The notes below the pieces were generated by a model. That model was not told the DNA's origin. It searched no databases and saw only the letters and a list, made by a program, of their open reading frames with translations. Positions 2,305-53,368 of a DNA stretch of 63,806 bases are shown in pieces; position 1 is the stretch's first letter, and every line of letters begins with the position of its first letter. The stretch is taken from positions 1 through 63,806 of the forward strand of contig JAYEKP010000088.1 in NCBI GenBank assembly GCA_034661075.1. Reading direction: 5' to 3'. The stretch comes from Bacteroidota bacterium. Its GTDB lineage: Bacteria > Bacteroidota > Bacteroidia > Bacteroidales > UBA12077. A program made the position numbers and the translations under genes.

Positions 2305-2398
2305 TCTTAATATTTTTTAATGAGCCGATTCATTTGTTTTATTGTATGATAAATAATCCACGGCTTTTGGTATATTAATCTTTTTAAAAAAAATTCGT

Positions 2399-3016: not shown

Positions 3017-3036
3017 GTTTATATCATTTCAGATTC

Positions 3037-3684: not shown

Positions 3685-3687
3685 TGT

Positions 3688-4398: not shown

Positions 4399-4416
4399 AG
4401 TTTATTTAATGTTTTA

Positions 4417-5580: not shown

Positions 5581-5636
5581 TATTAAAAATTTTTTATGTT
5601 AAAATATTTCTTTCTTTCATTATCCTTAATCGATGA

Positions 5637-7277: not shown

Positions 7278-7976
7278 TCAACCACTTTGACTAATTTTTT
7301 TTAATAAGTCAACATTTTTAATATCAATTTTCCCTTTTTCATCTTTAATAATTCCTTCTTTCCGTAAATTTTTCAACGTACGAACTACACTCATGGTTGA
7401 CATTCCTGTAAATTCTGCCAAATCTTTCCGTGATAGAATCATCTCAAATTCCTTGGATTTAAATATATTTTCTGATAAATACATTAATGCATCAGCTACC
7501 CTTCCGTTCATTTGTTTTTGGGTTAAACTTGCCATTTTATCATAAAACTGCAAAGCTTCAGCGTTTAATGAGGAGATAATCGATTTTGCAAATTTATGAT
7601 TCTTATAAATTAACTTTTCAATTACATTACGATCAATGGCACATACAACTGTATCGGATAAAGCTGCAACAGAAAAACGGGCAATATTATCCGGATTAAA
7701 TAATGAAGTTAAACCTATTAGTTTCCCTTCAGGAATAATATCTAAAATAAGATTACTGTCCACATCAGTTTCTTTATAAACTTTAACAAAACCTTCTTTT
7801 ATGTACATTATATGAGTAACAAAAGAACCCTGTTTGGAAATTATTTCCCCCTTTTTAAATCGAATCTGAACTTTATTTTCATTGGTCAGCAATAACTCCT
7901 TTTCATCTAACTGTTTAAAACAAAGAGATTTATTTTTGCATTCCAGGCATTCCGTTATCAATAATGATTTCATCAT
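7278..7976 (-). CDS. FNR-like Crp/Fnr-family transcriptional regulator (predicted [4Fe-4S] O2 sensor)
   Basis: N-terminal Cys motif C-x2-C-x5-C (ECLECKNKSLC) followed by FKQLDEKEL. Additional central Cys (VVCAIDRN). cNMP-binding-like domain. C-terminal HTH (RKDLAEFTGMSTMSVVRTLKNL). The ORF-track start at 8003 is a TTG; the ATG-ATG at 7976/7973 (MMKSLL) is more plausible. Confidence 0.85.
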   Translation of the reverse strand: MMKSLLITECLECKNKSLCFKQLDEKELLLTNENKVQIRFKKGEIISKQGSFVTHIMYIKEGFVKVYKETDVDSNLILDIIPEGKLIGLTSLFNPDNIARFSVAALSDTVVCAIDRNVIEKLIYKNHKFAKSIISSLNAEALQFYDKMASLTQKQMNGRVADALMYLSENIFKSKEFEMILSRKDLAEFTGMSTMSVVRTLKNLRKEGIIKDEKGKIDIKNVDLLKKISQSG

Positions 7977-8017
7977 GGAATTAAAAATAATAAAAAAATG
8001 CAATTTATTTTTGATTG

Positions 8018-8025
8018 CAAATATA
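8018..8025 (-). promoter_or_regulatory. Candidate -7 promoter box (TATATTTG) of the FNR-like gene
   Basis: Minus strand reads TATATTTG about 40 nt upstream of the ATG at 7976. Same 17-mer context as at 7181-7197. Confidence 0.35.
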
Positions 8026-8184
8026 TATCTATTTTTTTATAGATTTATATCTATATATAAATAGATTTTTATAATACATACATCAATCAAATTTATATTA
8101 AAAACATATTTTATAAAAGCTTATTTGTGAATAATTATTAGGAATTTATATTGTAGTTTTACAATGTATAAATATTTAAATATA

Positions 8185-8220
8185 TGTAATAATATATACA
8201 ATTGTAATAATATATACAAT
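8185..8220. repeat. Perfect 18-bp tandem direct repeat (TGTAATAATATATACAAT x2) ending 2 nt before the mrpE-like start codon
   Basis: Read directly: 8185-8202 is identical to 8203-8220. A related ACAATGTATAAATAT lies at 8161. Confidence 0.9.
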
Positions 8221-8222
8221 AT

Positions 8223-8717
8223 ATGAAAATCAAAAACTTCCTTGCATTATTTCTCATCTTAATGGTTGTTTGGGTATTAGTAAACAACTCCTTTTCCGGG
8301 AAAATTATTATTATAGGATTTATACTTTCAGCATTTATTGCATTTTTTTTCGGAACAAATTTACGGATTTTCGATGAGCTTAAATTTACGCCAACAGCGG
8401 TAGGGTACACTTTAATTTATCTTTTTGTATTTTTAATCGAATTAATCAAATCAAACCTCGATGTTGCCCGCCGGGTACTTACTCCCTCATTACCCATTAA
8501 TCCGGGAATTGTAAAAACCAAAACAGTATTAAAATCAAAAATGGGGCGTATGATTTTAGCTAATTCAATTACGCTTACCCCCGGAACACTTACCGTTGAT
8601 ATAGATGGCGATACTTTATATATACACTGGATTGATGTATGTTGCGACGATATTGACAAAGCAACACAAACCATTATTAAAAAATTTGAAAAACATTTAG
8701 TCAAAATATATGATTAA
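8223..8717 (+). CDS. mrpE: Mrp/Mnh-type cation:proton antiporter subunit E (MbxA/MbhA-like)
   Basis: 164 aa. MnhE-type sequence (ANSITLTPGTLTVD). First gene of the operon. Its stop overlaps the next start by 8 nt. Confidence 0.88.
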   Translation: MKIKNFLALFLILMVVWVLVNNSFSGKIIIIGFILSAFIAFFFGTNLRIFDELKFTPTAVGYTLIYLFVFLIELIKSNLDVARRVLTPSLPINPGIVKTKTVLKSKMGRMILANSITLTPGTLTVDIDGDTLYIHWIDVCCDDIDKATQTIIKKFEKHLVKIYD

Positions 8718-8970
8718 TAAAATTCTATTTATAGCAGCAATCATCATGTTGTTAGCGATTTTGCTAACACTTTACCGATTTATTAAAGGCCCTTCCGCTG
8801 CTGATAGGTTGGTGGCCTTTGATGTAATGACTGTAAGCTCTCTTGCACTTATAGCGCTCATTGCAAATTTTGCATCCCGGGTAATATATATTGATGTAGC
8901 ATTAGTTTACGGATTACTTAGCTTCCTGGGGATTATAATTGTTTCACGTTTTCTGGAAGGGGGGTTATAA
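8710..8970 (+). CDS. mrpF: Mrp/Mnh-type antiporter subunit F
   Basis: 86 aa, 3 TM helices, GPSAADRLVAFDVMT motif typical of MnhF. Confidence 0.88.
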   Translation: MINKILFIAAIIMLLAILLTLYRFIKGPSAADRLVAFDVMTVSSLALIALIANFASRVIYIDVALVYGLLSFLGIIIVSRFLEGGL

Positions 8971-8972
8971 TT

Positions 8973-9344
8973 ATGGATAGTACAATAGGTATAATTGGTG
9001 CAATTTTGGTGTTGTCAGGCTCCATATTTATCTTTTTAGGGGCTTTGGGCTTAGTGCGTATGCCTGATATATTTAATCGCATTCAGGCAGGAACTAAAGC
9101 ATCTACGTTGGGAACTTTTCTTTCTCTCATCGGATTATTGTTAATTACACCCGAATGGTGGGGCAAATTAATTTTATTAATGATATTTATCTTAATTACC
9201 AATCCTGTTTCGTCCCATGTTTTAGCAAGAGCAGCTCATTTTATTGGTGTTCCGCTGGCGGATAAAACGATAACCGATAAATATAAACAGGAAAAAAAAA
9301 CACTTTTGATTAACGACGAAATAAAAAACGATACCCATGATTAA
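8973..9344 (+). CDS. mrpG: Mrp/Mnh-type antiporter subunit G
   Basis: 123 aa. GALGLVRMPDIFNRIQAGTKASTLG is typical of MnhG. Confidence 0.88.
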   Translation: MDSTIGIIGAILVLSGSIFIFLGALGLVRMPDIFNRIQAGTKASTLGTFLSLIGLLLITPEWWGKLILLMIFILITNPVSSHVLARAAHFIGVPLADKTITDKYKQEKKTLLINDEIKNDTHD

Positions 9345-9582
9345 TCTTTTAATAACAATTGTCATCGGGATTTTAATTTTGATTATGGCCATTGTTGCCA
9401 TACACAATAAAAATCTAATAGTAGGCATTATAGCAGCAGGAGCCGTTAGTTTATTTGCTTCTATTCTGTATTTACTACTTGCCGCACCCGATGTTGCCAT
9501 GACCGAAGCCGCCATAGGGAGTGGTCTTTCTACAATTATTTTCTTTTATGTACTCAATAAAATAAAGAAACAAAATGGTTAA
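9337..9582 (+). CDS. MbhD-like small membrane subunit (DUF4040 / MnhB N-terminal-like)
   Basis: 81 aa, 3 TM helices, LLAAPDVAMTEAAIG motif. Overlaps both neighbours by 8 nt. Confidence 0.8.
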   Translation: MINLLITIVIGILILIMAIVAIHNKNLIVGIIAAGAVSLFASILYLLLAAPDVAMTEAAIGSGLSTIIFFYVLNKIKKQNG

Positions 9583-10273
9583 GAACACTTTTATATTTGT
9601 TTTGCTAGTAGGTTTTGTATTTCTGTTCTTCAATCTTTTTGCTGATTTTACCGGGAATACAGAACTTAATGAGCTTGCCGGCCATTATGCCGGCTCGGGG
9701 CATGAAGAAGTTGGTGCTGCTAACCTTGTAACTGCCGTGATTGTTACTTATCGTGGATTAGACACCTTGGGCGAAGTTACCATTTTGTTCTTATCGGCTG
9801 CCATTGTCAGCTTCTTGCTTAAAATTGAAACCTCAACAACAGATGACCGGAAGCTAAGAGCAACAAGTGAAATTTTGGATACTGCATCCAAAGTTTTAGT
9901 TCCCGTAATTTTTATTTTTGGTATTTATGTTTTTATCAACGGGCACCTTACACCCGGTGGTGGATTTCAAGGGGGAGCAATTATAGCATCAGGCCTTGTA
10001 TTAATATTACTTGCAAAACCAATAAGACGGATTAGCCATAAGCTGATTTCTATTGTTGAATCCATTTCGGGTTTAAGCTTTGTATTATTAGGTGTTGCAG
10101 GAATTCTTTTTGCTGCAGGGTTTTTAGACAATAAAATATTGTCGCTCGGTGAATTCGGAACTATTTTTAGCGCTGGCTTAATCCCTATCATATACATTTT
10201 TGTAGGATTAAAAGTTGGCGCCGAGTTATCGTCAATTATAACTAATTTACAGGAAAATCAGAACGAAGCATAA
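9575..10273 (+). CDS. MnhB-domain membrane subunit (MbhE/F-like)
   Basis: 232 aa. ANLVTAVIVTYRGLDTLGEVTILF and GHLTPGGGFQGGAI motifs of the MnhB family. Confidence 0.82.
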   Translation: MVKNTFIFVLLVGFVFLFFNLFADFTGNTELNELAGHYAGSGHEEVGAANLVTAVIVTYRGLDTLGEVTILFLSAAIVSFLLKIETSTTDDRKLRATSEILDTASKVLVPVIFIFGIYVFINGHLTPGGGFQGGAIIASGLVLILLAKPIRRISHKLISIVESISGLSFVLLGVAGILFAAGFLDNKILSLGEFGTIFSAGLIPIIYIFVGLKVGAELSSIITNLQENQNEA

Positions 10274-10644
10274 TGGAAAACTTAAATATAGAAACCGTAA
10301 CATTAATTACTGGAATAGTCCTTTTACTCATAGGTATATGGGGCTTACTTACCCAAAAAAATCTGATAAAAATGGTGATTGGGTTTGCTTTATTCGATAC
10401 CGGGATACATATTATAATGGTAAGTATCGGATATGTTAAAAATCGCACCGCTCCAATACTCGACCAGGCAGTAAAAACAAACGAAGCAGCAGAAAAAATT
10501 GTAGACCCTGTTCCACAGGCACTCGTTCTTACTGCTATTGTCATCGGGCTGGGAATTACAGCATTAATGCTTGCCTATGTTTTAAAAATGTATCAGAAAA
10601 AGAAATCTTTAGAAATCAATAATTATAACGATTTAAAATGGTAA
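10273..10644 (+). CDS. MnhC/NuoK-like membrane subunit (MbhG-like)
   Basis: 123 aa, 3 TM helices, NuoK/MnhC-like. The start shares 1 nt with the upstream stop (TAATG). Confidence 0.82.
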   Translation: MENLNIETVTLITGIVLLLIGIWGLLTQKNLIKMVIGFALFDTGIHIIMVSIGYVKNRTAPILDQAVKTNEAAEKIVDPVPQALVLTAIVIGLGITALMLAYVLKMYQKKKSLEINNYNDLKW

Positions 10645-13600
10645 GACCTTTATATATTATTGCTATTGCATTAGGAACAGCTTTTTCGTTGGGATTTTTT
10701 AAAAAGGCCAATCGAAATATTCCTTATGCATTCATGTTTTTGGCCATGGCTTTCATGGCATTTATTTCGGGCCAGTGGCTTTATGCTTTTTTAGCCAATC
10801 AGCAAGAAGCGATTCAAATTTTTACAGCAGGTTTTCAACCCCCATTTTCTATTAGCTTGCAAATGGGATTGCACGAAGCGGTTTTTCTGAGTTTGATTAA
10901 TGGAATTGGAGTATTATCTGCAATCTATTTATACGAACAATTCCGGGATAAAGGGGTGCAAATGATGATGGTTTTTATTTTGCTGTTTATGGGATTAAAC
11001 GTAATCATCATGACCCGCGATATTTTTAACCTGTTTGTTTTTCTCGAAATCTCAACCATTGCCCTTATTGGATTAATTTTATTAGAGAAAAAAGAGCATG
11101 CGATGAGTTCGGGATTTAAGTATCTGATTGCATCAGGAATAATAAGCGGGATATTGCTCATCGGAATTATTGCCATCTATTATTACAACGGCACATTATT
11201 CATGAATGACATTATTAGCTCTAACCCGCTTCTTCTAAAGGGTGGTTCAGTAGCTATTTTTCTTACCTTAATAGCAATCGTATTAGAATTAAAACCATTC
11301 CCGGCCAATGGATGGGCTTTAGATGTTTATGAAAGTGCACACCCGGGAGTTGGAGCCATTTTATCTGCCGCAATGGGCACGGCAATGCTATTTGTATTGT
11401 ATAAAATAACTCCCTTCATTGCTGATCCATGGTTTAATGTAATTGCTACCATTGGAATCATCACGTTTATTGGATCAAACCTCTTAGGAATTCAGCAAGA
11501 TAATGCCCAGCGCTTGTTAGGCTACTCTTCCGTAGGGCAGTTAGGATTAATTATGCTTGTTATCGGATTATCACCGTATCTTGGGGATAATTATCTATTT
11601 ATAGGGTTCACCCTTTTAATTAGCCACTTCCTGGCAAAAGCAGGTTTATTTTGGATAGCCGGTATTATCAAACAAAAAAAATTAAAAGGATGGTCTGTGC
11701 TTCGAAAAAAACCACTTTTAATGGTATTGTTTGGTACATTTATTTTTGCATTAATTGGGTTTCCTCCATTCCCATCATTTATGGGAAAATGGGAATTAAT
11801 TATGCAATTATCCCTATCAGGACAACATATATGGATGTTTTTGATTTTAATTGGTTCTTTGTTTGAATCAATATATCTTATAAGATGGTTTAGTGTGTCC
11901 CTTAAAACTGATAATACGGGGTTAAAAACTTTCAAAATTAAGCTTCATTCGATTCTGCCTCCTGCAATTTTTGGAATTGCAATTTATATATTTGGGTATA
12001 TTGCTGGAACATATCTAGATGCAGCAAAAGCTATCAATTATATCCCATTATTATTCATTATTTTTATAGCTTTAATTGATTTCTTACCTGCATGGGTGAA
12101 AAATATTATTTCAATATTTGGAGTTATTTTATATATAATATTTATTTATCCTACAGTAGAAGGTGATTTATTGAGACAAATTTTCCTTGGAATATTTTTA
12201 GGTGGTGCAGTTATAACATTATTTTCTGGATTTTATTATAAGGGTAAACGAGTGGGGTTTTATCCAATGGCATTAGCTATGTTTGCTGGTTTGGCAATGC
12301 TTATTACTGCTACTAATCTGTTTGAGATACTTTATGGTTGGGAATTAATGACAATTGGCTCATATTTTTTACTCATTAGAGGTAAAAAATCACAACCCCA
12401 CGGTTATAGCTATATGATGTTTTCAATTGGAGGTTCTTATGCTATAATGTTTGGATTTGCATTAGCGTTCACTAGTGCTGGAAATTTAGGATTAATTGCA
12501 TTAACTGGCATTAATGTCCTTCCAACTTTAGCATATTCTTTAATTTTATTAGGTTTCATGACAAAAACAGCCTCTTTCGGAGTGCATATATGGTTACCTG
12601 GAGCCCATGGAGAAGCTGTTGCAGATATTCATTTTATGGCATCCGCAATTTTACTTAAAGCCGGTGTGTTTGGAATTATTTTAGTGTTATTCGGAATGGG
12701 TTCTGAAGCAACTTATGCTAAAAATATATTATTAGCTCTTGGTTGGATTGGAGCCATTTCAGCTTTAATTGGAAATATGGCAGCAACATTTCAGGAAAGT
12801 GCAAAACGATTGCTTGCTTGGTCAAGTATTGGACAATTAGGATATATTATTTTTGGTCTTGCCACAATGTCGTATTTAGGTTGGATAGCTGGATTATTTT
12901 ATACCGTAACTCACTTTTTATATAAAGGTGTTTTATTTTTAATTATAGGAGGCATTGCTCTCAAATTAGGAACTCCTCTAATGTACAAAATGGGTGGGCT
13001 AATTAAAAAAATGCCATTTTCTTTTATTGCTGTATTAATTGCGATTATAACTTTGGCTGGAGTACCTCCCCTAGTTGGTTTTGCAGGTAAATGGCTGTTT
13101 TATAATACAATTATTAGCGAAGGTTTTTATTTTCAAGGAGTTGTTGTATTGTTTTCTGGAATAGTTGCATTCCTTTACCTTTTTAGATTAATACATACCA
13201 TTTTTTTAGGCCAGCTTAAAGATGAACATAGATATGTAAAAGAAATATCTCCATGGTTGTTAATTCCTGTATACTTGCTTTTAATAGGTATAATGATAAT
13301 ATCGGCAAGACCGGAAATTATTTTAAAACCTTTAGGAAATTATTTAATTGCCTATTTCCCAAATGGGGCAATTACTTGGAATGGAACAATGGCTAGTACA
13401 GGATTAGGATACTGGAATGGATATTGGGTAATGATAATCATCGGTGTAATGTTTGTATTTGTTCTTGGATGGTTACTTTACACCAATGCCAAAGCACAAA
13501 AAGTAAAACAATTTAACATGGTATACAGTGGCGAAAGGCCATTTACTCCGGAAACAACACATATTGCTCACAATATGTATGCCGGATACAGTAAAGCTTT

Positions 13601-13763
13601 AGGATTTATTGTGGAGCCATATATTACAAGATTCTGGAATAATATGTCTGATGCATTAGTACATTTAGGCGGGCTGATTAAAAGGATATATAATGGCAAT
13701 GGACAAACCTATGCCTTTTACATTATTGCCTATATTGTAATTACATTTTTTCTTGTTTTTTAA
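10638..13763 (+). CDS. Fused double NuoL/M/N (MrpD)-type antiporter-like subunit (MbxH-H'-like fusion)
   Basis: 1041 aa, all membrane. There are two successive proton-conducting-membrane-transporter-like halves. The first contains GYSSVGQLG, and the second contains WLPGAHGEA and WSSIGQLGY. Confidence 0.85.
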   Translation: MVRPLYIIAIALGTAFSLGFFKKANRNIPYAFMFLAMAFMAFISGQWLYAFLANQQEAIQIFTAGFQPPFSISLQMGLHEAVFLSLINGIGVLSAIYLYEQFRDKGVQMMMVFILLFMGLNVIIMTRDIFNLFVFLEISTIALIGLILLEKKEHAMSSGFKYLIASGIISGILLIGIIAIYYYNGTLFMNDIISSNPLLLKGGSVAIFLTLIAIVLELKPFPANGWALDVYESAHPGVGAILSAAMGTAMLFVLYKITPFIADPWFNVIATIGIITFIGSNLLGIQQDNAQRLLGYSSVGQLGLIMLVIGLSPYLGDNYLFIGFTLLISHFLAKAGLFWIAGIIKQKKLKGWSVLRKKPLLMVLFGTFIFALIGFPPFPSFMGKWELIMQLSLSGQHIWMFLILIGSLFESIYLIRWFSVSLKTDNTGLKTFKIKLHSILPPAIFGIAIYIFGYIAGTYLDAAKAINYIPLLFIIFIALIDFLPAWVKNIISIFGVILYIIFIYPTVEGDLLRQIFLGIFLGGAVITLFSGFYYKGKRVGFYPMALAMFAGLAMLITATNLFEILYGWELMTIGSYFLLIRGKKSQPHGYSYMMFSIGGSYAIMFGFALAFTSAGNLGLIALTGINVLPTLAYSLILLGFMTKTASFGVHIWLPGAHGEAVADIHFMASAILLKAGVFGIILVLFGMGSEATYAKNILLALGWIGAISALIGNMAATFQESAKRLLAWSSIGQLGYIIFGLATMSYLGWIAGLFYTVTHFLYKGVLFLIIGGIALKLGTPLMYKMGGLIKKMPFSFIAVLIAIITLAGVPPLVGFAGKWLFYNTIISEGFYFQGVVVLFSGIVAFLYLFRLIHTIFLGQLKDEHRYVKEISPWLLIPVYLLLIGIMIISARPEIILKPLGNYLIAYFPNGAITWNGTMASTGLGYWNGYWVMIIIGVMFVFVLGWLLYTNAKAQKVKQFNMVYSGERPFTPETTHIAHNMYAGYSKALGFIVEPYITRFWNNMSDALVHLGGLIKRIYNGNGQTYAFYIIAYIVITFFLVF

Positions 13764-13781
13764 TTTAAGATTACCATAGCT

Positions 13782-14690
13782 ATGAACGATATTATAGTCA
13801 AACTTTTATGGACATTATTAGGTTTATTCATTGTGCTGAATTGGGGATTGTTAATGGGTGCAACCATGCGAAAAATTGTAGCACGCGTAGCACATAGATA
13901 TGGAATCCCTTTTTATCAACCCTGGCTCGACCTGATTAAATTGTATTCTAACCGTTCATCGATTAGTCATGGTGTCATGTTTTACTTAGGCCCTGTTTTC
14001 AGGCTTGGTGGCGGATTAGGAATTTTCCTTTTTTTACCGCTCATCTATGGTTCTGAGCATTTTAGTAATTTCTCATGGGCCGGTGATTTAGTATTGATTT
14101 TATACTTCCAGTTTTTTGGGATGTTAGGCATGGCCTTAGGTGCAGGCGAAGGGGGGCACCCAAATTCTGTCATTGGAATTACCAGGGGATTAGGACAGTT
14201 TACCACGGTTGAGCTACCATTAACCCTGGCAGTAATATCTATTGCACTCCAATATAATACTCTTTCAATCTCAGAAATAGTAGCAGCACAACAAGGTGGA
14301 TTTCAAAACTGGACCTTAGTTACCAATCCTATTGCCACAGCAGCAGCTATGCTTTCATTACTTGGATTATTCAGACACGCACCTTTTAACTTAGTTATGG
14401 CACCGAATGAAGTTCCTATTGGGCCACCAACCGAGTATCACTCCGCCTTTTTAGGTGTTCTTAGAACCAATGGTGCAATTTTACATGTAGTTGAAGCGGC
14501 GTTATTTATGAATTTGTTTTTTGGGGGAGCAACCCATTGGGTAGAATTTATTGTAAAAACATTCCTGATTTATTTCTGGTCTGTTTTTGTTGGTGTTGTT
14601 TCACCACGTTTCAGAATAGAACAATCGGTAACCTGGTTCTTAAAAATACCTTTAGCGATAGGTATTTTGGCTGTAATTCTTTACATCTAA
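13782..14690 (+). CDS. NuoH/HycD-like membrane subunit (MbxM-like)
   Basis: 302-aa polytopic protein, complex I subunit-1 family-like. Placed before the NuoB-like gene. Confidence 0.8.
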   Translation: MNDIIVKLLWTLLGLFIVLNWGLLMGATMRKIVARVAHRYGIPFYQPWLDLIKLYSNRSSISHGVMFYLGPVFRLGGGLGIFLFLPLIYGSEHFSNFSWAGDLVLILYFQFFGMLGMALGAGEGGHPNSVIGITRGLGQFTTVELPLTLAVISIALQYNTLSISEIVAAQQGGFQNWTLVTNPIATAAAMLSLLGLFRHAPFNLVMAPNEVPIGPPTEYHSAFLGVLRTNGAILHVVEAALFMNLFFGGATHWVEFIVKTFLIYFWSVFVGVVSPRFRIEQSVTWFLKIPLAIGILAVILYI

Positions 14691-14706
14691 TTAAAAATCA
14701 TTTAGC

Positions 14707-15390
14707 ATGTCAGATAATACTAAAAATATAGAAGAAAAAAAGGATAAATTTCTCGCTGAAGAAAACAAAAAAAGAATAGTAACCGGCCCGGATGGGGTAC
14801 AATTTGAAGTAGACCCTTTACAGGATTATTTTTGCGATCAGCGTCCTGTTGCAAAGGATCCCAAAAATAAAGTTATTGAAAAATTTTTAAATTGGGCTCG
14901 GGCAGAATCTTTATGGGTTTTGGGCTTTGGAACCGGCTGTGGGAGTATTGAAATCCCTCCACTACTAACTCCAAGGTTTGATGCTTTTAGATATGGTGTT
15001 CAAATGAGGCCTACTCCCAGACAATCATCGGTACTTATAATTTCCGGATATTTAGCGGTAAAAACATTAAAAAGAGCGATCCGCTCTTACGAGCAAATGC
15101 AAAATCCGAAATATGTACTTGCCTTAGGCAGCTGTACCATTAACGGAGGAATGTACTATGATAGTTATAATACCATTAACCGTTTAGATTATTATTTGCC
15201 GGTAGATGTATATGTGGCCGGTTGTATGCCACGTCCGGAAGCACTATTAGCCGGATTTAATAAACTAAAAGAACGAATAAAAGCCGGAAAAGCTGAAGGA
15301 GCCAACGATTATGCCAACAAATTTGACTGGTACAAAGCCAATCAAAAAAAAATTATTAAAGATTGGAACATGCCTGATTATAATTGGTAA
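14707..15390 (+). CDS. NuoB / hydrogenase small-subunit-like protein (MbxJ-like) with only three cluster cysteines
   Basis: 227 aa. NuoB-like blocks are SLWVLGFGTGCGSIE (canonical FGLACCxxE), PRQSSVLIISG, LGSCTINGGMY and VAGCMPRPE. Only Cys78, Cys143 and Cys173 are present. Confidence 0.85.
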   Translation: MSDNTKNIEEKKDKFLAEENKKRIVTGPDGVQFEVDPLQDYFCDQRPVAKDPKNKVIEKFLNWARAESLWVLGFGTGCGSIEIPPLLTPRFDAFRYGVQMRPTPRQSSVLIISGYLAVKTLKRAIRSYEQMQNPKYVLALGSCTINGGMYYDSYNTINRLDYYLPVDVYVAGCMPRPEALLAGFNKLKERIKAGKAEGANDYANKFDWYKANQKKIIKDWNMPDYNW

Positions 15391-15417
15391 AAACCGAACA
15401 AAGTAAAATATTTAAAA

Positions 15418-15951
15418 ATGAAGGAAATCATTCAAGATATAAAAAAGAGATTCAATTGTACTGATGAGATTGAGCAATCAAAAACGCAGAGTTATATTAC
15501 AGTTCAAAAAGAGTTAGCCATTGCTTTAATTACACATCTAAGAGATATTAAAGGTTTTACACACCTGGTTCTTTTAACGGCTGTAGACTGGATTGAAAAC
15601 AACCAGTTCCAGCTAACCTACATGCTAAATAATCCAACAAAAAAAATTGACTTAGGCGTGCGGGTTTTTATCGACCGCGAAACAGCAACCATGGACAGCG
15701 CACATCATTTATGGGAGCAGATGGCAACCTATCAGCGTGAGTTAAAAGAGATGTTTGGTATTGATTTCCCGGGTAGTCCAAGACTTAACGAACCCTTTAT
15801 ATTAGAAGGATGGGATAACATCCCTCCATACCGTAGAGATTTCGACACCTTAAAATATGCACAGGAAACTTTCTTCCCGCGCGAAGGAAGAGAGACCAAT
15901 GATCCTGCTGAATTTATGAAGAAAAAGATGTATCCCGATGAAGAAAAATAA
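15418..15951 (+). CDS. NuoC-like 30-kDa subunit (MbxK-like)
   Basis: 177 aa. NuoC-type core (LVLLTAVDW..., FGIDFPGSPRL...LEGWD). Overlaps the next gene by 14 nt. Confidence 0.82.
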   Translation: MKEIIQDIKKRFNCTDEIEQSKTQSYITVQKELAIALITHLRDIKGFTHLVLLTAVDWIENNQFQLTYMLNNPTKKIDLGVRVFIDRETATMDSAHHLWEQMATYQRELKEMFGIDFPGSPRLNEPFILEGWDNIPPYRRDFDTLKYAQETFFPREGRETNDPAEFMKKKMYPDEEK

Positions 15952-17128
15952 TAAAATATGGCCAGGCGACCGGTCTAAATACCCGGCTTTTGATGAGAAT
16001 GGAAACCCTATCATCGACTTAAAGTCGCATAAATTAACCAAATTGTGGCATGGGCCTAACCATCCCGGAGTTACAGGAAATATGTCGCTTGAGCTTACCC
16101 TAAGCGGAGATGAAGTAGTGGAAGCGAAAACGCATGTTGGATACTTACACCGTGGATTTGAAAAACTAATGGAACGTCGGTTATATATTCAATGTTTCCC
16201 TACATGTATCAGGATGTGTGTTCCTGAAGCGGACTCAAATGAATATGTTTTGGCAGCATCTATTGAAGATTTAGGGGGAATAGAAATTCCTGAAGCTGCC
16301 TCATGGATGAGAACACTCGTTCTTGAGATGGCCAGATTACAAGTTTTATTAAGAACAGTTCCGGGACAGGCTGCAACTCTTTCATTAGGCATGGGGGCTC
16401 AATGGGGAATGTATTTAAGAGACCTCATACTAGACCGCTTCGAAGAACTCACCGGAGGTCGTATTTATCATATGTTTATTATTCCCGGAGGGGTTCGTGG
16501 ACTATTACCTGCCGGATTCAAAAAACGAATGGAAGAGAATTTAGTAGAGATTGAAGAATTTATCGATAAAATTGAGGATTTAATATTTACCAATGCCATA
16601 TTTAAAAAACGAACTATTGGAATAGGTTACATTGATCCTTCATGGGTAGATAAATATGGCATTGTCGGCCCAAATGCAAGAGCTGCAGGGTATAACCGCG
16701 ATGTTCGAAAAGACTACCCCTATTTAAAATATAATGAACTGGATTTTGAACCTTATGTTGGCAAAGATTCTGATGTATTCACCCGTTCACAAGTAAGAAA
16801 ACATGATTTAATTCAAACGGTTGATTTAATCCGACAAATTCTGGCAAAAGTTCCTGAAAAAGGAGACATTCGGGCAAAAACGCCTAATGTACTACATTGG
16901 CAGCTTCCCAAAGGAGAAACCTATCAAAGAAGTGAATCTTCAAGAGGGGAATATGGTTTATATGTAGTTTCCGATGGTTCCAAATACCCAAGGAGGGTAA
17001 ATCTTAGAGGACCCAGTTATACTCATGCTGTAGCTTTACTCGAAAAATTATTAATCAATGCAAACATTGCTGATGTTCATTCTATCATGGTATCATTACA
17101 AACTTGTCCGCCTGAAATTGAACGATAA
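15938..17128 (+). CDS. NuoD / [NiFe]-hydrogenase large-subunit-like protein (MbxL-like) lacking two of four NiFe cysteine ligands
   Basis: 396 aa. Contains GPNHPG and HVGYLHRGFEKLME blocks. The N-terminal ligand motif reads R-M-C94-V-P-E97 instead of R-x-C-G-x-C. The C-terminus reads Q-T-C390-P-P-E393-I-E-R-stop instead of D-P-C-x-x-C-x-x-R. Confidence 0.85.
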   Translation: MKKNNKIWPGDRSKYPAFDENGNPIIDLKSHKLTKLWHGPNHPGVTGNMSLELTLSGDEVVEAKTHVGYLHRGFEKLMERRLYIQCFPTCIRMCVPEADSNEYVLAASIEDLGGIEIPEAASWMRTLVLEMARLQVLLRTVPGQAATLSLGMGAQWGMYLRDLILDRFEELTGGRIYHMFIIPGGVRGLLPAGFKKRMEENLVEIEEFIDKIEDLIFTNAIFKKRTIGIGYIDPSWVDKYGIVGPNARAAGYNRDVRKDYPYLKYNELDFEPYVGKDSDVFTRSQVRKHDLIQTVDLIRQILAKVPEKGDIRAKTPNVLHWQLPKGETYQRSESSRGEYGLYVVSDGSKYPRRVNLRGPSYTHAVALLEKLLINANIADVHSIMVSLQTCPPEIER

Positions 17129-17145
17129 CTTGTGGTGATTTGTGT

Positions 17146-17568
17146 ATTTGGTTATATGATTATTTGAAAAATTGATATAAATATGAGACTTTATTCTTTT
17201 GAAAAACTTGAAGTATGGAAGTTATCACGAAAATTGAATAAAAATATTTATCAAATTAGTGAGAAATTTCCTGATAGTGAGAAATTTGGATTAACATCTC
17301 AAATAAGAAGAGCTTCAGTTTCAATTTCTTCAAATATTGCAGAGGGAAACTCAAGAAAATCAGGAATTGAACAAGCTAGATTCACAGAATTTGCATTTGG
17401 AAGTTTAATGGAAGTGTTGAATCAACTAATACTTGCTAATGATCTGGAGTTTATTAATGAACAAATTTTAAATAATGAAAGATTATTAATAGAAGAGATA
17501 GGTAATAAGATAAATAAATTGAAAGAAGTTCAATTGAGAAAAGGGCACAATTCTTCATATAACCAAAT
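17146..17568. repeat. 14-bp perfect inverted repeat bracketing the four-helix-bundle gene (arms 17146-17159 ATTTGGTTATATGA and 17555-17568 TCATATAACCAAAT)
   Basis: Read directly. The left arm is 24 nt upstream of the start codon. The right arm lies inside the last codons of the ORF. Confidence 0.8.
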
Positions 17569-17578
17569 CAACAAATAA
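17183..17578 (+). CDS. Four-helix-bundle protein (23S rRNA intervening-sequence protein / Avd-like family)
   Basis: 131 aa. YSFEKLEVWKLSRKL...FGLTSQIRRASVSISSNIAEGNSR...FAFGSLMEV is the family signature as I remember it. It interrupts the L-N gene junction of the operon. Confidence 0.85.
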   Translation: MRLYSFEKLEVWKLSRKLNKNIYQISEKFPDSEKFGLTSQIRRASVSISSNIAEGNSRKSGIEQARFTEFAFGSLMEVLNQLILANDLEFINEQILNNERLLIEEIGNKINKLKEVQLRKGHNSSYNQINK

Positions 17579-17594
17579 TCTAATAAACAATAAA

Positions 17595-19391
17595 ATGAAA
17601 TTAAAAGACATATTAACACCTTTTACCGCCTGGAAAAATGTTTTTGAAGATCCCAAAACGGTAAAAGACCCTTTAAATGACCGGCCAGGAGCCGAAAGAT
17701 ATAGAGGCTTTCATAAAAATGATATCGAAACCTGTATTGGGTGTGGTACGTGTGAGGAAATCTGTGAAAATCAAGCCATTGATTTGGTTCCTGTAGAAGG
17801 CATCGAAACAAAAGACGGGGACAGTGGATTACGGCCCAGAATTGATTACGGAAGATGTTGCTGGTGTGCCCTATGTGTGGATGTTTGTACCACAGGGTCG
17901 CTAACTCTAAGTAACGAATATACCTGGGTTTCTGAAGATCCTGAAGACTTTAGATATACCCCTGGGGTTGATAAAAAAACCTGGGACAAAAATGAAGCAG
18001 GATGGAAAAAACCTGAACATGGGTATGAATTATATCCTCTTGAGCGGGTGAAAATCGAGCATCTGAAACCGGAAGAGAGGGATCAATCATTTATAGAGAT
18101 AATAAAAGGTTACTCCAAAGAAGAAGCACAAAAAGAAGCCGACCGTTGTGTGGAATGTGGGATATGTGTTGCAACCTGCCCTGCACATATGGGAATCCCT
18201 GAATATATTAAAGCCGTTCGGGAAGATAATATTGAAGAAGGACTTAGAAAATTGTATGAAACCAACCCCTTACCCGAGATTTGTGGAAGGATATGTACGC
18301 ATAAATGTGAAACGGTTTGTTCTGTCGGGAATCTGGGTGAGCCTCTATCTATCCGATGGCTCAAAAGATATATTGCCGACCAGGTGGATTCTGAAGACTA
18401 TAAACGAATTTTAGGAACCGATGGCATTGAAAATAAAGATAAAAAAATAGCGATTATTGGCTCTGGGCCATCGGGATTATCAGCAGCATACTATCTGGCT
18501 CTCATGGGATATCAGGTTAAAATATTTGAAGCTTATCCACAAGCCGGTGGAATGATGCGTTATGGAATCCCGGAGTATCGATTACCTTACGGCCAGATTG
18601 ACAAAGATATAAATTATATTCTGTCATTAGGTGTTGAAATAAAATACAATACACGAATAGGCAAAGATATAACCCTTGAAAATCTTCAGAAAGAATACGA
18701 CGCAGTATTTTCAGGTACAGGATTGCATTTGGGCAGAAGTACCCGAATACCGGGAACAGACCATGAAAATGTTTATCAGGCAATCGATCTACTGCGAGAT
18801 ATTACTATGGGGAAAGAAGTCCCTGTTGCTGAAAAGATAGTTGTAATTGGAGGGGGAAATGTAGCAATGGATATTACCCGCTCGCTGGCACGTTTACAAA
18901 ATCAGAAGTATGGTAAAGTACATATAACAGCAACCTCGCTTGAATCTGAGGATATTATGCCCGCCGACCGGGAAGAAGTGGTAGAGGCGCGCGAAGAAAA
19001 AGCAACCATTGAACCCGGATGGGGACCGACATCCATCGAGATTGAAAACAATAAAATTAAAGGATTGCATGTGCAGAAATGTACTTCTGTTTTTGATAAA
19101 GATGGCCGCTTCAATCCAAAATTTGATGAATCACAAACAAAATTCTTCGAAGCTGATATGGTGATTGAATCCATAGGACAGGGAATGGATATTGAATACA
19201 TCAGTAAAGATACCCGCGAACAAATGGAGTTTGACCCTCGAGGTAGAATTATTGTTGATAATTATTTCCAGACAGGTGCCAAATGGCTGTTTGTAGGTGG
19301 TGATATTATCCAGGGGCCGGATGTTATCCATGGTATTGCCAACGGACATAAAGCAGCCATAGGAATTGACCGGTTTTTAATGAATAAATAA
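17595..19391 (+). CDS. Fusion protein: NuoI/MbxN-like 2x[4Fe-4S] ferredoxin domain + GltD/NfnB/PreT-like FAD- and NAD(P)H-binding iron-sulfur flavoprotein
   Basis: 598 aa. N-terminal CIGCGTCEEIC and CCWCALCVDVC motifs. GltD-type Fe-S region follows (RCVECGICVATCP...GRICTHKCETVC). FAD fold IAIIGSGPSGLSAAYYL...AGGMMRYGIPEYRLP, and a second dinucleotide fold IVVIGGGNVAMD. Confidence 0.85.
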   Translation: MKLKDILTPFTAWKNVFEDPKTVKDPLNDRPGAERYRGFHKNDIETCIGCGTCEEICENQAIDLVPVEGIETKDGDSGLRPRIDYGRCCWCALCVDVCTTGSLTLSNEYTWVSEDPEDFRYTPGVDKKTWDKNEAGWKKPEHGYELYPLERVKIEHLKPEERDQSFIEIIKGYSKEEAQKEADRCVECGICVATCPAHMGIPEYIKAVREDNIEEGLRKLYETNPLPEICGRICTHKCETVCSVGNLGEPLSIRWLKRYIADQVDSEDYKRILGTDGIENKDKKIAIIGSGPSGLSAAYYLALMGYQVKIFEAYPQAGGMMRYGIPEYRLPYGQIDKDINYILSLGVEIKYNTRIGKDITLENLQKEYDAVFSGTGLHLGRSTRIPGTDHENVYQAIDLLRDITMGKEVPVAEKIVVIGGGNVAMDITRSLARLQNQKYGKVHITATSLESEDIMPADREEVVEAREEKATIEPGWGPTSIEIENNKIKGLHVQKCTSVFDKDGRFNPKFDESQTKFFEADMVIESIGQGMDIEYISKDTREQMEFDPRGRIIVDNYFQTGAKWLFVGGDIIQGPDVIHGIANGHKAAIGIDRFLMNK

Positions 19392-19408
19392 TTTAAAATT
19401 ATTTTGCT

Positions 19409-20389
19409 ATGATAGATCTTTCGACCGAATACATGGGGTTAAAACTAAAAAACCCAATTATCGCAGCCAGCTCGGGACTAACCGACACGGCAGAAAAAGT
19501 AAAAAAACTGGAAGATAGTGGTGTAGGTGCTGTTGTTTTAAAATCATTGTTCGAAGAACAAATCCGTATGAAAGTTGATTCTTTAGGTATGAACAACATG
19601 TTTAATACCTATTCGGATAACGAAAATTACATAGCCTTTTACACCAAACAAAATACTGTAAACGAATATTTAACGCTTATCAAAGACTCCAAAGCAAAAG
19701 TTAATATTCCGGTTATTGCCAGCATTAATTGCTACTCTATGGGCGAATGGGTTGAGTTTACCCAAAAAATTGAAGAAGCAGGAGCTGACGGTATTGAATT
19801 AAATATGTTTATATTACCCGGAGATATTGAACAAAAAGGAGAAGAAATTGAACAAAAATATTTTGACATTATCCGGAAGGTTCAGGAACATACATCGCTA
19901 CCTGTTGCTGTGAAATTAAGCTACTATTTTTCGGGAATGGGCGAAATTTTAAAGCGTATCTCTCAAACCGGAATAAAAGGAATGGTATTATTTAATCGTT
20001 TTTATAATCCTGATGTTGATTTGGAAAATGAAAAAATAAAACCTTCGAGAATTTTTAGTGTCCCTGAAGAAAACTCCATGTGTATCCGTTGGATTGGTTT
20101 ACTATCGGGTAAAGTAACTTGCGACATGGCTGCTTCAACGGGTATCGATGATGGATATGGCGCATTAAAAAATATTCTGGTCGGCGCCAAAGCCGTTCAG
20201 GTAGCATCTGCTTTATATCAAAATAAATTAGAACATATTAACCAAATGCTAACCCAGATGGAATCGTGGATGCAGAATAAAGGGTACAATTCTATCCAGG
20301 AAATTATTGGAAAATTAAATTACTCCAAACACAATGTTGAATTGTACGAAAGAGCCCAGTTTATGAAATATTACTCGAGTTACGAATAA
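19409..20389 (+). CDS. Dihydroorotate dehydrogenase-like (PyrD/PreA-fold) FMN TIM-barrel protein lacking the class-1 catalytic Cys
   Basis: 326 aa. N-terminus LSTEYMGLKLKNPIIAASSGLT and GADGIELN are DHOD-like. Where class-1 DHOD/DPD has LN(L)SCPN, this protein has LNMFILPG. No C-terminal ferredoxin domain. Confidence 0.75.
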   Translation: MIDLSTEYMGLKLKNPIIAASSGLTDTAEKVKKLEDSGVGAVVLKSLFEEQIRMKVDSLGMNNMFNTYSDNENYIAFYTKQNTVNEYLTLIKDSKAKVNIPVIASINCYSMGEWVEFTQKIEEAGADGIELNMFILPGDIEQKGEEIEQKYFDIIRKVQEHTSLPVAVKLSYYFSGMGEILKRISQTGIKGMVLFNRFYNPDVDLENEKIKPSRIFSVPEENSMCIRWIGLLSGKVTCDMAASTGIDDGYGALKNILVGAKAVQVASALYQNKLEHINQMLTQMESWMQNKGYNSIQEIIGKLNYSKHNVELYERAQFMKYYSSYE

Positions 20390-20402
20390 CGAAATAAGGA
20401 GA

Positions 20403-20432
20403 ATGACCGGTATTTTGCCGGTCATTTTTTTA
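20403..20432 (+). terminator. Rho-independent terminator ending the 8223-20389 operon
   Basis: ATGACCGG-tattttg-CCGGTCAT followed by T7, 14 nt after the stop codon. Confidence 0.8.
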
Positions 20433-20512
20433 TCATACAAATATAATTATATAGATATATTGATTTATATAATATTTTTCCCTATTTTTACGTAAACTAA
20501 AATTTTACACCT

Positions 20513-23779: not shown

Positions 23780-24376
23780 ATAGCTTTTAAATTACCAAAT
23801 TTATCATACAGTTACGATGCATTAGAACCATATATTGATGCACGAACCATGGAGATACACCATACCAAACATCATGGTGGATATACCAATAAGTTAAACG
23901 ATGCAATAAAAGGAACTCCGATTGAAAATCAATCGATTGAAGAGATATTAAAAAAAGTTTCAAAACATCCAACGGCTGTTAGAAATAATGGCGGCGGGTA
24001 TTATAACCACAAACTCTTTTGGGACATTATGTCGCCCGAAGGAGGTGGTGAACCTTCAGGAAAATTGATGGATACCATAAAAAAAGACTTTGGCTCTTTC
24101 GATAAATTCAAAGAAGAGTTTAATCAGGCTGCGGCCACCCGTTTTGGCTCGGGTTGGGCATGGCTGATGAACCAGAACGGGAAATTAGTAATTGCCTCTA
24201 CTCCAAACCAGGATAATCCGTTAATGGATATCAGTGAAGTAAAAGGAACCCCCATATTAGGACTTGATGTATGGGAACATGCATATTACTTAAAATACCA
24301 AAACAGAAGGCCCGAATATATTGATGCTTTCTGGAGTATAGTTGACTGGAATAAAGTAAAAAAGCGTTTTGTTTAG
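23780..24376 (+). CDS. sodA: Mn-type superoxide dismutase with ATA at the Met1 position (non-canonical start or start-loss pseudogene)
   Basis: The frame is open from 23768. The translation (I)[31 protein letters not shown]... is a full SOD N-terminus. There is no ATG/GTG/TTG between the upstream TAA (23765) and the internal Met at 23849. [11 protein letters not shown] and [18 protein letters not shown] motifs are present. Confidence 0.7.
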
Positions 24377-24436
24377 TTGTTTTACCAACTGCCCTTAGGC
24401 AGTGCAGATTTGTAAATGTAATTTAGGTTTAGTAAG

Positions 24437-24460
24437 GCCGGGATTTTTCCCGGCCTTTTT
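24437..24460 (+). terminator. Rho-independent terminator after the first SOD gene
   Basis: GGCCGGG-attttt-CCCGGCC followed by TTTTT. Confidence 0.75.
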
Positions 24461-24530
24461 GTTGTAATTCCCTTTTTTATTCATTAAATTTATTTAACAA
24501 TTTGATGTCAAACCTAAAAAAATAATCATT

Positions 24531-25106
24531 ATGGCTTTCGAATTACCTAATTTACCCTATGCATACGACGCACTAGAACCAGAAATATCCAAACAAACGC
24601 TCGAGTTCCATCACGATAAGCATCACGCTGCTTATGTAAACAAGTTAAATAATTTAATTAAAGGAACCGAGTTTGAGAATGCAGATATTGTAGATATCAT
24701 TATGAAATCGGATGGTGGTATTTTTAACAATGCTGCACAGACCTGGAATCATACCTTTTACTTTGATCAATTTGGCAAAGACAAAAGCAATGAACCCAAA
24801 GGACAGCTGAAAGATGCAATAAATGAGACATATGGTTCATTTAATGAATTCAAAGAAAAATTCGCAGATGCAGCAAAAACCTTATTTGGATCGGGTTGGG
24901 CATGGTTAGTTAAAAAACCGAACGGCAGCCTGGATATTGTCCAAACACCCAATGCGGCGAATCCGTTAACCGAGGGGTTAATCCCTATTTTAACCTGCGA
25001 TGTATGGGAACATGCTTACTATTTAGATTATCAGAATAAGCGTCCCGATTACATCGAGAGTTTCTGGAAAATTCTCGATTGGGATATCATCTCCGGCCGC
25101 TATTAA
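24531..25106 (+). CDS. sodB: Fe-type superoxide dismutase
   Basis: 191 aa. MAFELPNLPYAYDALEP, AAQTWNHTFYF (Fe-type signature as I recall) and [18 protein letters not shown]. Confidence 0.9.
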   Translation: MAFELPNLPYAYDALEPEISKQTLEFHHDKHHAAYVNKLNNLIKGTEFENADIVDIIMKSDGGIFNNAAQTWNHTFYFDQFGKDKSNEPKGQLKDAINETYGSFNEFKEKFADAAKTLFGSGWAWLVKKPNGSLDIVQTPNAANPLTEGLIPILTCDVWEHAYYLDYQNKRPDYIESFWKILDWDIISGRY

Positions 25107-25159
25107 ACATATTTAAAACCATTTTAAATTACCTATTCAGGTAATACAATACTTTTTTT

Positions 25160-25195
25160 GTTCCCGGAAATTTTTATCTTCGGGAACATTTTTTA
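25160..25195 (+). terminator. Rho-independent terminator after sodB
   Basis: GTTCCCG...CGGGAAC stem followed by ATTTTTT. Confidence 0.65.
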
Positions 25196-25222
25196 TGATC
25201 AAAACTTACTAAATTTAATATT

Positions 25223-25798: not shown

Positions 25799-25856
25799 TA
25801 AGAGTTTAAACTTATATCTAAGAGGATGTCCTAAAAGTGTTTATTTCAATATACAC

Positions 25857-25916
25857 TTCGACAGGCTCAGTGTGACATCTTAGTTGTTAGCTCATTGTCA
25901 TATTGAGCTTGTCGAA
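25857..25916 (+). repeat. 21-bp-arm hairpin of the TTCGACARGCTCA...TGACA repeat type
   Basis: Arms are 25857-25877 and 25896-25916. The three non-Watson-Crick positions are all G.U pairs when the plus strand is folded (C.A on the minus strand). Confidence 0.7.
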
Positions 25917-25969
25917 ATATGAATAACTAATGAACACTCTCTTTTATCTTACGCAAAAAATTATGCATT

Positions 25970-53353: not shown

Positions 53354-53368
53354 CGTTTATAAAACATT

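Follow-up and report, generated by a model that had tools for sequence, protein, structure and literature searches.

A two-cysteine ligand motif, probably a relic of the [NiFe] site, in the L subunit of a Bacteroidota Mrp-Mbx-type complex

The L subunit gene and its ligand motifs

This study concerns a stretch of 63,806 nucleotides from a Bacteroidota bacterium (Bacteroidales, UBA12077; assembly GCA_034661075.1, contig JAYEKP010000088.1, positions 1 to 63,806), which was analyzed as a whole and is called the window in the following, and within it a gene cluster of the Mrp-Mbx type. The co-directional cluster spans 8223-20389 and the order of its 13 functions is that of Mbx/MBS, the complex of Pyrococcus furiosus formerly known as Mbx that proved to be a sulfane-sulfur reductase (MBS) and not an NADP reductase (PMC7684303; PMC8165549). 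Our analysis centers on the gene for its L subunit, an MbsL/MbxL-type, NuoD-like protein of 396 residues encoded at 15938..17128 on the plus strand (Pfam Complex1_49kDa, E 2.6e-60), whose open reading frame (ORF) is intact with 396 codons followed by a stop. An initial annotation had described this protein as an intermediate between the large subunits of group-4 [NiFe] hydrogenases and NuoD of complex I, in which the first cysteine of each ligand pair is kept and the second is replaced by glutamate, and had left it at two options, namely that the resulting Cys2Glu2 pocket binds a different metal or substrate or that it is vestigial.

A scripted count found cysteines at positions 86, 90, 94 and 390 of the L subunit and at no others. 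The two motifs read exactly as they had been described, the first being IRMC94VPE97ADSNE (codons C94-V95-P96-E97 at 16217..16228, plus strand) and the second LQTC390PPE393IER396 (codons C390 to R396 at 17105..17125, plus strand) with the stop codon immediately 3′ of it. We aligned the protein by MAFFT with three homologues and with two proteins of Escherichia coli, NuoCD and the true group-4 [NiFe] hydrogenase HycE. In this alignment R-V-C-G-I-C of HycE pairs with R92-M-C94-V-P-E97, a relic of the N-terminal ligand motif RxCGxC, and D-P-C-Y-S-C-T-D-R pairs with Q-T-C390-P-P-E393-I-E-R396, a relic of the C-terminal DPCxxCxxR, which bears out the assignment of the four residues to the four [NiFe] cysteines.

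When compared to group-4 hydrogenases (MbhL, 6CFW_L; HycE, 7Z0S_E), the L subunit shares a homologous fold and has the first and third ligand cysteines as well as the terminal arginine in register, whereas the second and fourth cysteines are glutamates. Since these two ligands are missing, a standard four-cysteine [NiFe] site is impossible in this protein. The segments RMCVPEADSN and QTCPPEIER also depart from the hydrogenase motifs RxCGxCxxxH and DPCxxCxx(R/H) in that the histidine of the former is Asn101 and the aspartate of the latter is a threonine. A glutamate in the β1-β2 loop, conserved in HycE, pairs with Gly47; we assume that this glutamate is the proton-relay residue E21 of MbhL. The C-terminal tail removed by a maturation protease is likewise absent, as had been pointed out in the initial annotation, because R396 is the last residue of the L subunit while HycE runs 32 residues past the aligned arginine, its cleavage site. 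C86 and C90 are variable already in close relatives, and hence no other cysteine of the protein stands in for the missing ligands. With four independent signatures missing, we rejected the reading of the protein as a hydrogenase with unusual ligands. Families of hydrogenase maturation proteins (Hyp, HycI) were not found among the 48 ORFs of the window scanned against Pfam; a few ORFs of at least 100 residues and the genome outside the window were left unchecked.

Towards complex I, the L subunit shares with NuoD, Nqo4 and the 49-kDa subunit the fold (TM-score about 0.8), an acidic residue at the position of the fourth cysteine and the lack of a [NiFe] site. E. coli NuoCD carries E/G and V/D at the four positions and no cysteine, with aspartate at the fourth; most NuoD-type representatives of clusters at 50% identity have glutamate there, as the initial annotation had stated for NuoD. 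Other than these proteins the L subunit keeps two ligand cysteines and is without the quinone ligands H38 and Y87 of Nqo4, which correspond to Thr46 and Val95 in the alignment with the sequence from the Protein Data Bank (PDB). None of the signatures of hydrogenases or quinone reductases is present in the L subunit.

Relatives of the L subunit and conservation of the four positions

The best match of the L subunit among PDB sequences is MbsL of P. furiosus (6U8Y_L; E 3.5e-86, 293 bits, 39% identity), followed by Nqo4 with 197.5, MbhL with 110 and HycE with 97 bits. In the printed alignment MbsL reads lRiCVPEpD and slDNCPPDIDR, the latter ending the protein, and so shows the same pattern of cysteines and acidic residues and the same terminus. 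C94, E97, C390 and E393 correspond to C85, E88, C385 and D388 of MbsL, and the two proteins therefore share the relic motifs C-V-P-E and C-P-P-(D/E)-I-(D/E)-R-end, with the difference that the fourth position is aspartate in MbsL and glutamate in the Bacteroidota protein. The absence of the quinone ligands is also common to both. An AlphaFold2 model of the L subunit alone, with an acceptable fold (pTM 0.79), was compared to the PDB by Foldseek and is by TM-score most similar to 6U8Y_L (0.84/0.89), while the E-value cannot separate MbsL from the 49-kDa subunits. The predicted local distance difference test score (pLDDT) lies below 50 at residues 41-48, 69-83, 88-99 and 390-396, which is too low to judge how the four residues are arranged.

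For MBS it has been described that two of the four [NiFe] cysteines, C85 and C385, are retained as a vestige unable to bind [NiFe] (PMC7684303; PMC8165549), in line with what had been stated for MbxL/MbsL in the initial annotation and with the sequence of 6U8Y_L. A C85A/C385A mutant of P. furiosus had the activity of the wild type (PMC7684303), and the MBS peripheral arm holds three [4Fe-4S] clusters, with no further cofactor described (PMC7684303; PMC8165549). A stepwise loss of cysteines has been proposed along the line from hydrogenase via membrane-bound hydrogenase (MBH) and MBS to NDH/complex I (PMC8165549; PMC7684303), and a vestigial first and third cysteine was already noted in the NuoD homologues of 'mbx and mbx-like' type (PMC4758237). 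The intermediate character ascribed to the L subunit is thus correct, but was published before (PMC8165549, PMC7684303, PMC4758237). Taken together, it is likely that the L subunit is an MbsL/MbxL orthologue belonging to a bacterial Mrp-Mbx (MBS-like) ion-translocating complex and that CxxE...CxxE represents a degenerate relic of the [NiFe] site.

A search of the protein database returned 2492 homologues of the L subunit at an E-value of 1e-20 or better. The best 120 of these are 70-96% identical to it, those with a named source come mostly from Bacteroidota metagenome-assembled genomes, and the name carried by the best homologues is 'NADH-quinone oxidoreductase subunit D'. The pattern is not accidental: all 120 homologues of at least 70% identity have T46, R92, C94, V95, E97, C390, E393 and R396; about 38% of all columns are invariant at this level of identity, and hence the invariance of the four residues says little there. 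Among representatives of clusters at 50% identity, 19 have cysteine at all four positions; in each of these the hydrogenase motifs are complete, and a tail is present in many. Many other representatives are NuoD types (D/N-x-V/I-E). Between these stand intermediates with the combinations CDCD, CECD, CDCE, CCCD, CSCE, CVCE and CACE.

We further analyzed 80 loci, taking one genome per species, calling ORFs in all of them and matching these to the proteins of the window. The closest locus is that of Salinivirga (80% identity), and the others belong to further Bacteroidales, to Chlorobiota, Spirochaetes, Cloacimonadota and Calditrichota, to Alpha-, Beta- and Gammaproteobacteria including the cultured Aliiruegeria, Sinisalibacter and Tropicimonas, and to Thermoanaerobaculia, Melioribacter, Campylobacterota and two archaea. 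The Mrp-Mbx gene order is conserved throughout. Because the L gene has an intact ORF, is conserved in different phyla and shows synteny, a reading as a pseudogene was rejected. Position 94 is cysteine in 71, alanine in nine and serine in one of 81 L subunits, and position 390 is cysteine in 47 and tyrosine in 33 of 80. The two acidic positions show a different picture, with glutamate in 77 and aspartate in four of 81 at position 97 and glutamate in 77 and aspartate in three of 80 at position 393. Nine loci have neither cysteine but alanine for C94 and tyrosine for C390, and keep both glutamates. R92, V95, G47, P391, P392 and R396 are invariant across the loci and Thr46 is nearly so. The conservation of the four positions, for which the initial annotation had proposed a check among orthologues, therefore holds for the glutamates, which are always replaced by an acidic residue if at all, and fails for the cysteines: a strict constraint acts on the acidic pair but not on the cysteines.

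The tyrosine at position 390 marks a large sister clade (among loci L019-L064, e.g. L020, L031 and L038) with the unambiguously aligned C-terminus SLHTYPPEIER, whose members are Proteobacteria, Spirochaetes, Cloacimonadota and some Bacteroidales. The idea that Tyr390 indicates an aerobic host that uses quinones was rejected, since Cloacimonadota and Spirochaetes also belong to the clade and no clean correlation results.

These data bear on the possibility that the Cys2Glu2 pocket is a new working site, i.e. a mononuclear metal or a pair of cysteine persulfides beside the proximal cluster that would be the true catalytic center in this lineage. The invariance of the four residues in the 120 close homologues and in loci of the Bacteroidota type, the acidic nature of positions 97 and 393 in every orthologue and the description of the two MBS cysteines as 'conserved', although non-catalytic, in a review (PMC8165549) speak for it. 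Yet C390 and C94 are lost in orthologues that reside in the same operon, at nine loci together, the invariance at high identity is shared by more than a third of the columns, and the P. furiosus double mutant was as active as the wild type in an enzyme for which no extra cofactor is described (PMC7684303). Since both cysteines are lost in orthologues, an obligatory Cys2Glu2 metal site appears unlikely, a pattern that agrees with the wild-type activity of the mutant, and we regard the new working site as very improbable. Of the two options put forward for the pocket, the vestigial one is thus favored and the binding of a different metal or substrate disfavored.

The operon and its NAD(P)H-type flavoprotein fusion

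All genes of the cluster lie on the plus strand. It begins with six small Mrp-type membrane subunits identified by Pfam, in the order MnhE, MrpF, MrpG, MbhD, MbhE/MnhB and NuoK-like (8223..10644), which recurs in the 80 genome loci. The next gene (10638..13763; 1041 residues) encodes a fusion of H and H′ with two antiporter modules of the Mrp/NuoL-M-N type, recognized as two stretches of Pfam Proton_antipo_M. A single protein of this kind, equivalent to MbsH and MbsH′ of P. furiosus, occurs where the L subunit is at least 53% identical to that of the window, and two separate proteins of about 500 and 620 residues are present below this value. There follow the M subunit, a NuoH-like membrane anchor of the peripheral arm (13782..14690; Pfam NADHdh, E 7.5e-42), the J subunit (14707..15390), the NuoC-like K subunit (15418..15951; Pfam Complex1_30kDa, E 6.6e-25) and the L subunit. 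The Mrp-type membrane arm with two antiporter modules and the gene set M-J-K-L-N are shared with P. furiosus MBS, from which the Bacteroidota complex differs by the fusion of H and H′ and by a host of mesophilic type. Compared to complex I, the Mrp-like membrane arm (MnhE, MrpF, MrpG) is a distinguishing feature and the NuoEFG module is absent.

The J subunit is MbsJ/NuoB-like and would carry the proximal [4Fe-4S] cluster (motif G73-F-G75-T-G-C78-G; best match 6U8Y_J with E 4.9e-61). For MBS it has been reported that this cluster has three cysteine ligands, C25 being too distant to bind, and the free iron has been proposed as the catalytic site (PMC7684303; PMC8165549). The ungapped alignment of both proteins pairs AFC25TGC28GG of MbsJ with GFG75TGC78GS. 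Cysteines at ligand positions are C78, C143 and C173 only, equivalent to C28, C93 and C123 of MbsJ, and the position of C25 is Gly75. A cluster with only three cysteine ligands on a short loop, as in MBS, would thus be present here as well, whereas the spare fourth cysteine of MBS is absent altogether from the Bacteroidota protein; G75 is the rule across related loci.

This partner subunit is of importance for a second alternative, according to which the L subunit would serve quinone reduction in an alternative complex I, whose NfnB-like module would oxidize NAD(P)H while menaquinone is reduced in the chamber formed by L, J and M. Such a function would agree with the database name of the homologues and with the score of the NCBIfam NuoD model NF004739, which at 358.8 stays just below its cut-off of 360, and the fold of the L subunit is indistinguishable from that of 49-kDa subunits. 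Menaquinone genes of the futalosine pathway are present in the window, many carriers of the complex belong to proteobacterial groups, which contain quinones, the transfer from NAD(P)H to quinone would provide enough energy for an arm with two antiporters, and the entrance of the MBS chamber is wide, as in complex I (PMC7684303). However, the residues at the H38 and Y87 positions of Nqo4 are threonine and valine, Val95 without exception and Thr46 nearly so, and the J subunit is without the tandem Cys-Cys of NuoB, having GCG instead. Moreover, the window already holds a complete Nqr operon and the complex also occurs in Cloacimonadota and Spirochaetes. We therefore consider a quinone-reducing function unlikely.

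The N subunit (17595..19391; NCBIfam PRK13984, 915.8 bits) is a fusion of 598 residues. Residues 1-135 are NuoI/MbsN-like with two CxxCxxCxxxC motifs for two [4Fe-4S] clusters (best match 6U8Y_N, 2.4e-21 over residues 5-115), and residues from about 150 to 598 are NfnB/GltD-like with two further [4Fe-4S] clusters, flavin adenine dinucleotide (FAD) and an NAD(P)H site (best matched by the NfnB-type chains 9N5U, 4YLF_B and 5JCA_L at about 1e-75). In total, three CxxCxxCxxxC and one CxxxCxxxCxxxC motif are present; those of the NfnB-like part comprise C185/188/191/195 and C230/234/238/242, accompanied by GSGPSG at 289 and GGGNVA at 419. In 72 fusion proteins all 17 cysteines are kept, 14 of them being invariant and three missing in one sequence. 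The iron-sulfur motifs predicted in this way form an uninterrupted set, which connects the J cluster with the flavin/NAD(P)H domain.

The C-terminal 450 residues align end to end with NfnB of the NADH-dependent ferredoxin:NADP+ oxidoreductase (4YLF_B, 5JCA_L) and with GltD, including both [4Fe-4S] motifs and those for FAD and NAD(P)H. NfnB differs in that the fusion to a NuoI/MbsN domain here tethers the flavoprotein to a membrane complex, that the partner is PyrD-like and would bind flavin mononucleotide (FMN) whereas NfnA is PyrK-like, and that the NADPH-type YRRR is TSLE here, with an insertion of six residues. Within the fusion family, the nucleotide-binding strand (residues 419-455) is of two kinds, one with YRRR (e.g. 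L009, L051, L068) and one with the six-residue insertion and T-S/A/C-L-E (the window, L002, L020, L038), which points to a change between NADPH and NADH. With TSLE in place of YRRR, the Bacteroidota lineage probably uses NADH rather than NADPH.

In MBS, by contrast, the N subunit is free-standing with two [4Fe-4S] clusters and takes electrons from ferredoxin. The fusion was found in most of the 80 loci, with N free-standing in archaea, Campylobacterota and two other bacterial loci, and also in the cultured Prolixibacter bellariivorans. As judged from the sequences, the fusion to NfnB/GltD makes the Bacteroidota complex a variant of the archaeal enzyme that matches the bacterial 'mbx-like' type (PMC4758237), and this fused, gltD-type subtype was noted in print in 2015 (PMC4758237). 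Bacterial 'mbx-like' or Mrp-Mbx operons in which a gltD-related subunit replaces NuoI have been described in Thermotoga and proteobacteria (PMC4758237) and in Endoriftia (PMC11636981). The operon type and a rubrerythrin nearby (PMC4758237) are shared with them, and the differences are that this is a Salinivirga-like Bacteroidota member, with a dihydroorotate dehydrogenase (DHOD)-like last gene, the insertion of an intervening sequence (IVS) protein gene and a nucleotide site other than YRRR. A literature search for Mbx in Bacteroidetes or Ignavibacteria returned nothing relevant.

For mbx-like operons with a gltD-type subunit, a function as Rnf-like ferredoxin:NAD(P)+ oxidoreductase has been proposed (PMC4758237), and likewise for Mesotoga Mbx. 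In this older reading of Mbx, the transfer would take place at the tip of the peripheral arm and be linked to ion pumping, and a ferredoxin-dependent aldehyde oxidoreductase is indeed encoded in the window. It is opposed by the identification of P. furiosus Mbx as a sulfane-sulfur reductase, by a path that would bypass the conserved coupling site of J, L and M, and by the absence of a separate ferredoxin-docking N subunit. Hence, such an activity is highly doubtful.

The last gene of the operon (19409..20389; NCBIfam PRK07565, 413.6 bits at a cut-off of 303) encodes a DHOD-like TIM-barrel protein that is a probable FMN subunit and constitutes a further addition relative to P. furiosus MBS. It matches DHODA and domain IV of dihydropyrimidine dehydrogenase (DPD) weakly. 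The catalytic cysteine of Lactococcus lactis DHODA aligns to isoleucine and the following Pro-Asn is deleted, while the residues contacting FMN look conserved. Of the 80 loci, 12 have this gene directly after N and three more have it beside the cluster; nearly all of these are from Bacteroidota or Melioribacter. Together, the DHOD-like protein and the N fusion hold the cofactor set of dihydropyrimidine dehydrogenase in permuted order, the FMN barrel being the sole DPD-type module that the fusion is without.

Between L and N lies a gene for a four-helix bundle protein ('23S rRNA IVS protein'; 17183..17578; Pfam PF05635, E 8.9e-35). L002 and L013 carry it in the corresponding position, and L016 has it before K. 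None of the other scanned loci contains it; in the closest genome (L006) only about 45 nucleotides lie there, as compared to 17129-17594 in the window. An imperfect inverted repeat of 29 nucleotides (17138-17166 and 17548-17576; 83% complementary) flanks the gene. It was rejected as a subunit of the complex due to its sporadic occurrence and looks like a small insertion cassette that landed repeatedly in the Mrp-Mbx operon.

An intrinsic terminator was read directly from the sequence downstream of the DHOD-like gene (20402..20434, plus strand; hairpin AATGACCGG-loop-CCGGTCATT followed by a T run); the terminator scan lists this hairpin on the other strand. As a strong hairpin with a T run follows the stop codon of the DHOD-like gene, 8223-20389 appears to be one transcription unit. 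A scan for sigma-70 promoters and terminators gave counts as in shuffled sequence, and Rfam had no match anywhere in the window.

Upstream of the operon, a divergent gene (7278..8003, minus strand) encodes a regulator of the Crp/FNR family (Pfam cNMP_binding and HTH_Crp_2) with the cysteines C19-x2-C22-x5-C28...C121, a spacing which we take to be that of E. coli FNR (Cys20/23/29/122). Twelve of the fetched loci have a divergent Crp gene upstream, and these are without exception of Bacteroidota/Chlorobiota type; CxxCx5C is kept in nine of 13 Crp-family ORFs beside related operons. An FNR box (TTGAT-N4-ATCAA) was not found upstream of the operon (intergenic region 8004-8222), and its count in the window is that expected by chance. 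A direct repeat of 17 nucleotides, GTAATAATATATACAAT, occurs twice just before the first operon gene (about 8186-8219). The complete Na+-translocating NADH:quinone oxidoreductase operon (NqrA-F; 1048-6992, minus strand) lies further upstream.

Genes for two Fe/Mn superoxide dismutases lie downstream, the first of them with an incomplete N-terminal domain, along with genes for a rubrerythrin and a nitroreductase, and the window also encodes a tungsten-type aldehyde:ferredoxin oxidoreductase besides the futalosine-pathway genes; all these genes lie in the regions 23849-26548 (plus strand), 29728-31884 (minus strand) and 52520-54052 (minus strand). This gene content points to a host that is an oxygen-stressed anaerobe or a microaerophile with menaquinone and ferredoxin metabolism. 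Two very large ORFs of 1630 and 2019 residues (37352-42244, minus strand; 44134-50193, plus strand) adjoin a PorP/SprF gene (36233-37216) and a gene for a protein with an IgGFc-binding-like domain (42329-43984), and they are probably cargo of type IX secretion.

Proposed reaction and significance of the complex

By analogy to P. furiosus MBS, the pocket in the L subunit would be free of metal and non-catalytic, a remnant with a structural or proton-handling role, and for the acidic pair E97/E393 such a role is more likely than metal binding. The reaction site would instead be the free iron of the three-cysteine J cluster, which would face the chamber formed by L, J and M, and redox turnover at this cluster may drive ion translocation by the Mrp-type membrane arm. 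The soluble partner would be a pyridine nucleotide, not ferredoxin, so that electrons enter or leave via the NfnB/GltD-like flavoprotein. A conceivable path leads from NAD(P)H over FAD, the two [4Fe-4S] clusters of the flavoprotein and the two of the N domain to the J cluster, and the DHOD-like protein might, speculatively, form an FMN side branch. As acceptor in the chamber, sulfane sulfur is our first, if tentative, choice, because of the homology to MBS, the 4.4-fold induction of mbxA by S0 in Thermotoga maritima (PMC9431562) and the presence in sulfur symbionts, in one of which the Mrp-Mbx complex is listed among the functions (PMC11636981).

Several points weigh against this interpretation of the L subunit and its complex. 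The AlphaFold model is unreliable exactly at the site (residues 41-48, 88-99 and 390-396, with pLDDT below 50). Within the Bacteroidota clade neither C94 nor C390 varies, and the cysteine pair may have a lineage-specific role there. The acceptor, the direction and the coupling ion of the fused-type bacterial complex are all deduced. The carriers include the Rhodobacterales isolates Aliiruegeria, Sinisalibacter and Tropicimonas, which are aerobic as far as known and in which sulfur respiration is not obvious. Furthermore, the transfer from NAD(P)H to polysulfide would yield little, by our own estimate roughly 12-25 kJ per two electrons if midpoint potentials of about -320 and -260 mV are assumed. 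A figure similar to this has been given for MBH (PMC8165549).

A pocket that is still alive would be compatible with the conservation pattern in another way. In this case, E97/E393 would form a substrate or proton site beside the three-cysteine cluster, together with the variable position 390, which is cysteine in Bacteroidota and archaea and tyrosine in the clade of Proteobacteria, spirochaetes and Cloacimonadota, the change from cysteine to tyrosine would mark a change of acceptor, and the Bacteroidota form with its DHOD-like FMN protein would be a three-way redox hub. We regard this as quite unlikely. If true, a quinone-like compound might, for example, have replaced sulfane sulfur, the transition between hydrogenase and complex I would be recorded in extant lineages of the NAD(P)H-fused complex, and the three-way hub of the Bacteroidota would sit on an ion pump and possibly be bifurcating.

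Returning to the degenerate relic as the favored explanation, CxxE...CxxE is an already known hallmark of MbsL/MbxL, and the two-cysteine relic has been used before to argue for a stepwise evolution from hydrogenase via MBS to complex I; what is new here is the Bacteroidota-lineage member of the fused-N bacterial subtype. Since the survey of orthologues shows that the cysteines are dispensable and the acidic pair is not, the interest for mutagenesis shifts to E97 and E393. The Mbx-type complex with an NAD(P)H flavoprotein fusion is widespread across bacterial phyla, including cultured strains, and is hidden under annotations like 'NADH-quinone oxidoreductase subunit D' and 'glutamate synthase small chain'. 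The complex could be a sizeable unrecognized route of energy conservation in anoxic sediments.

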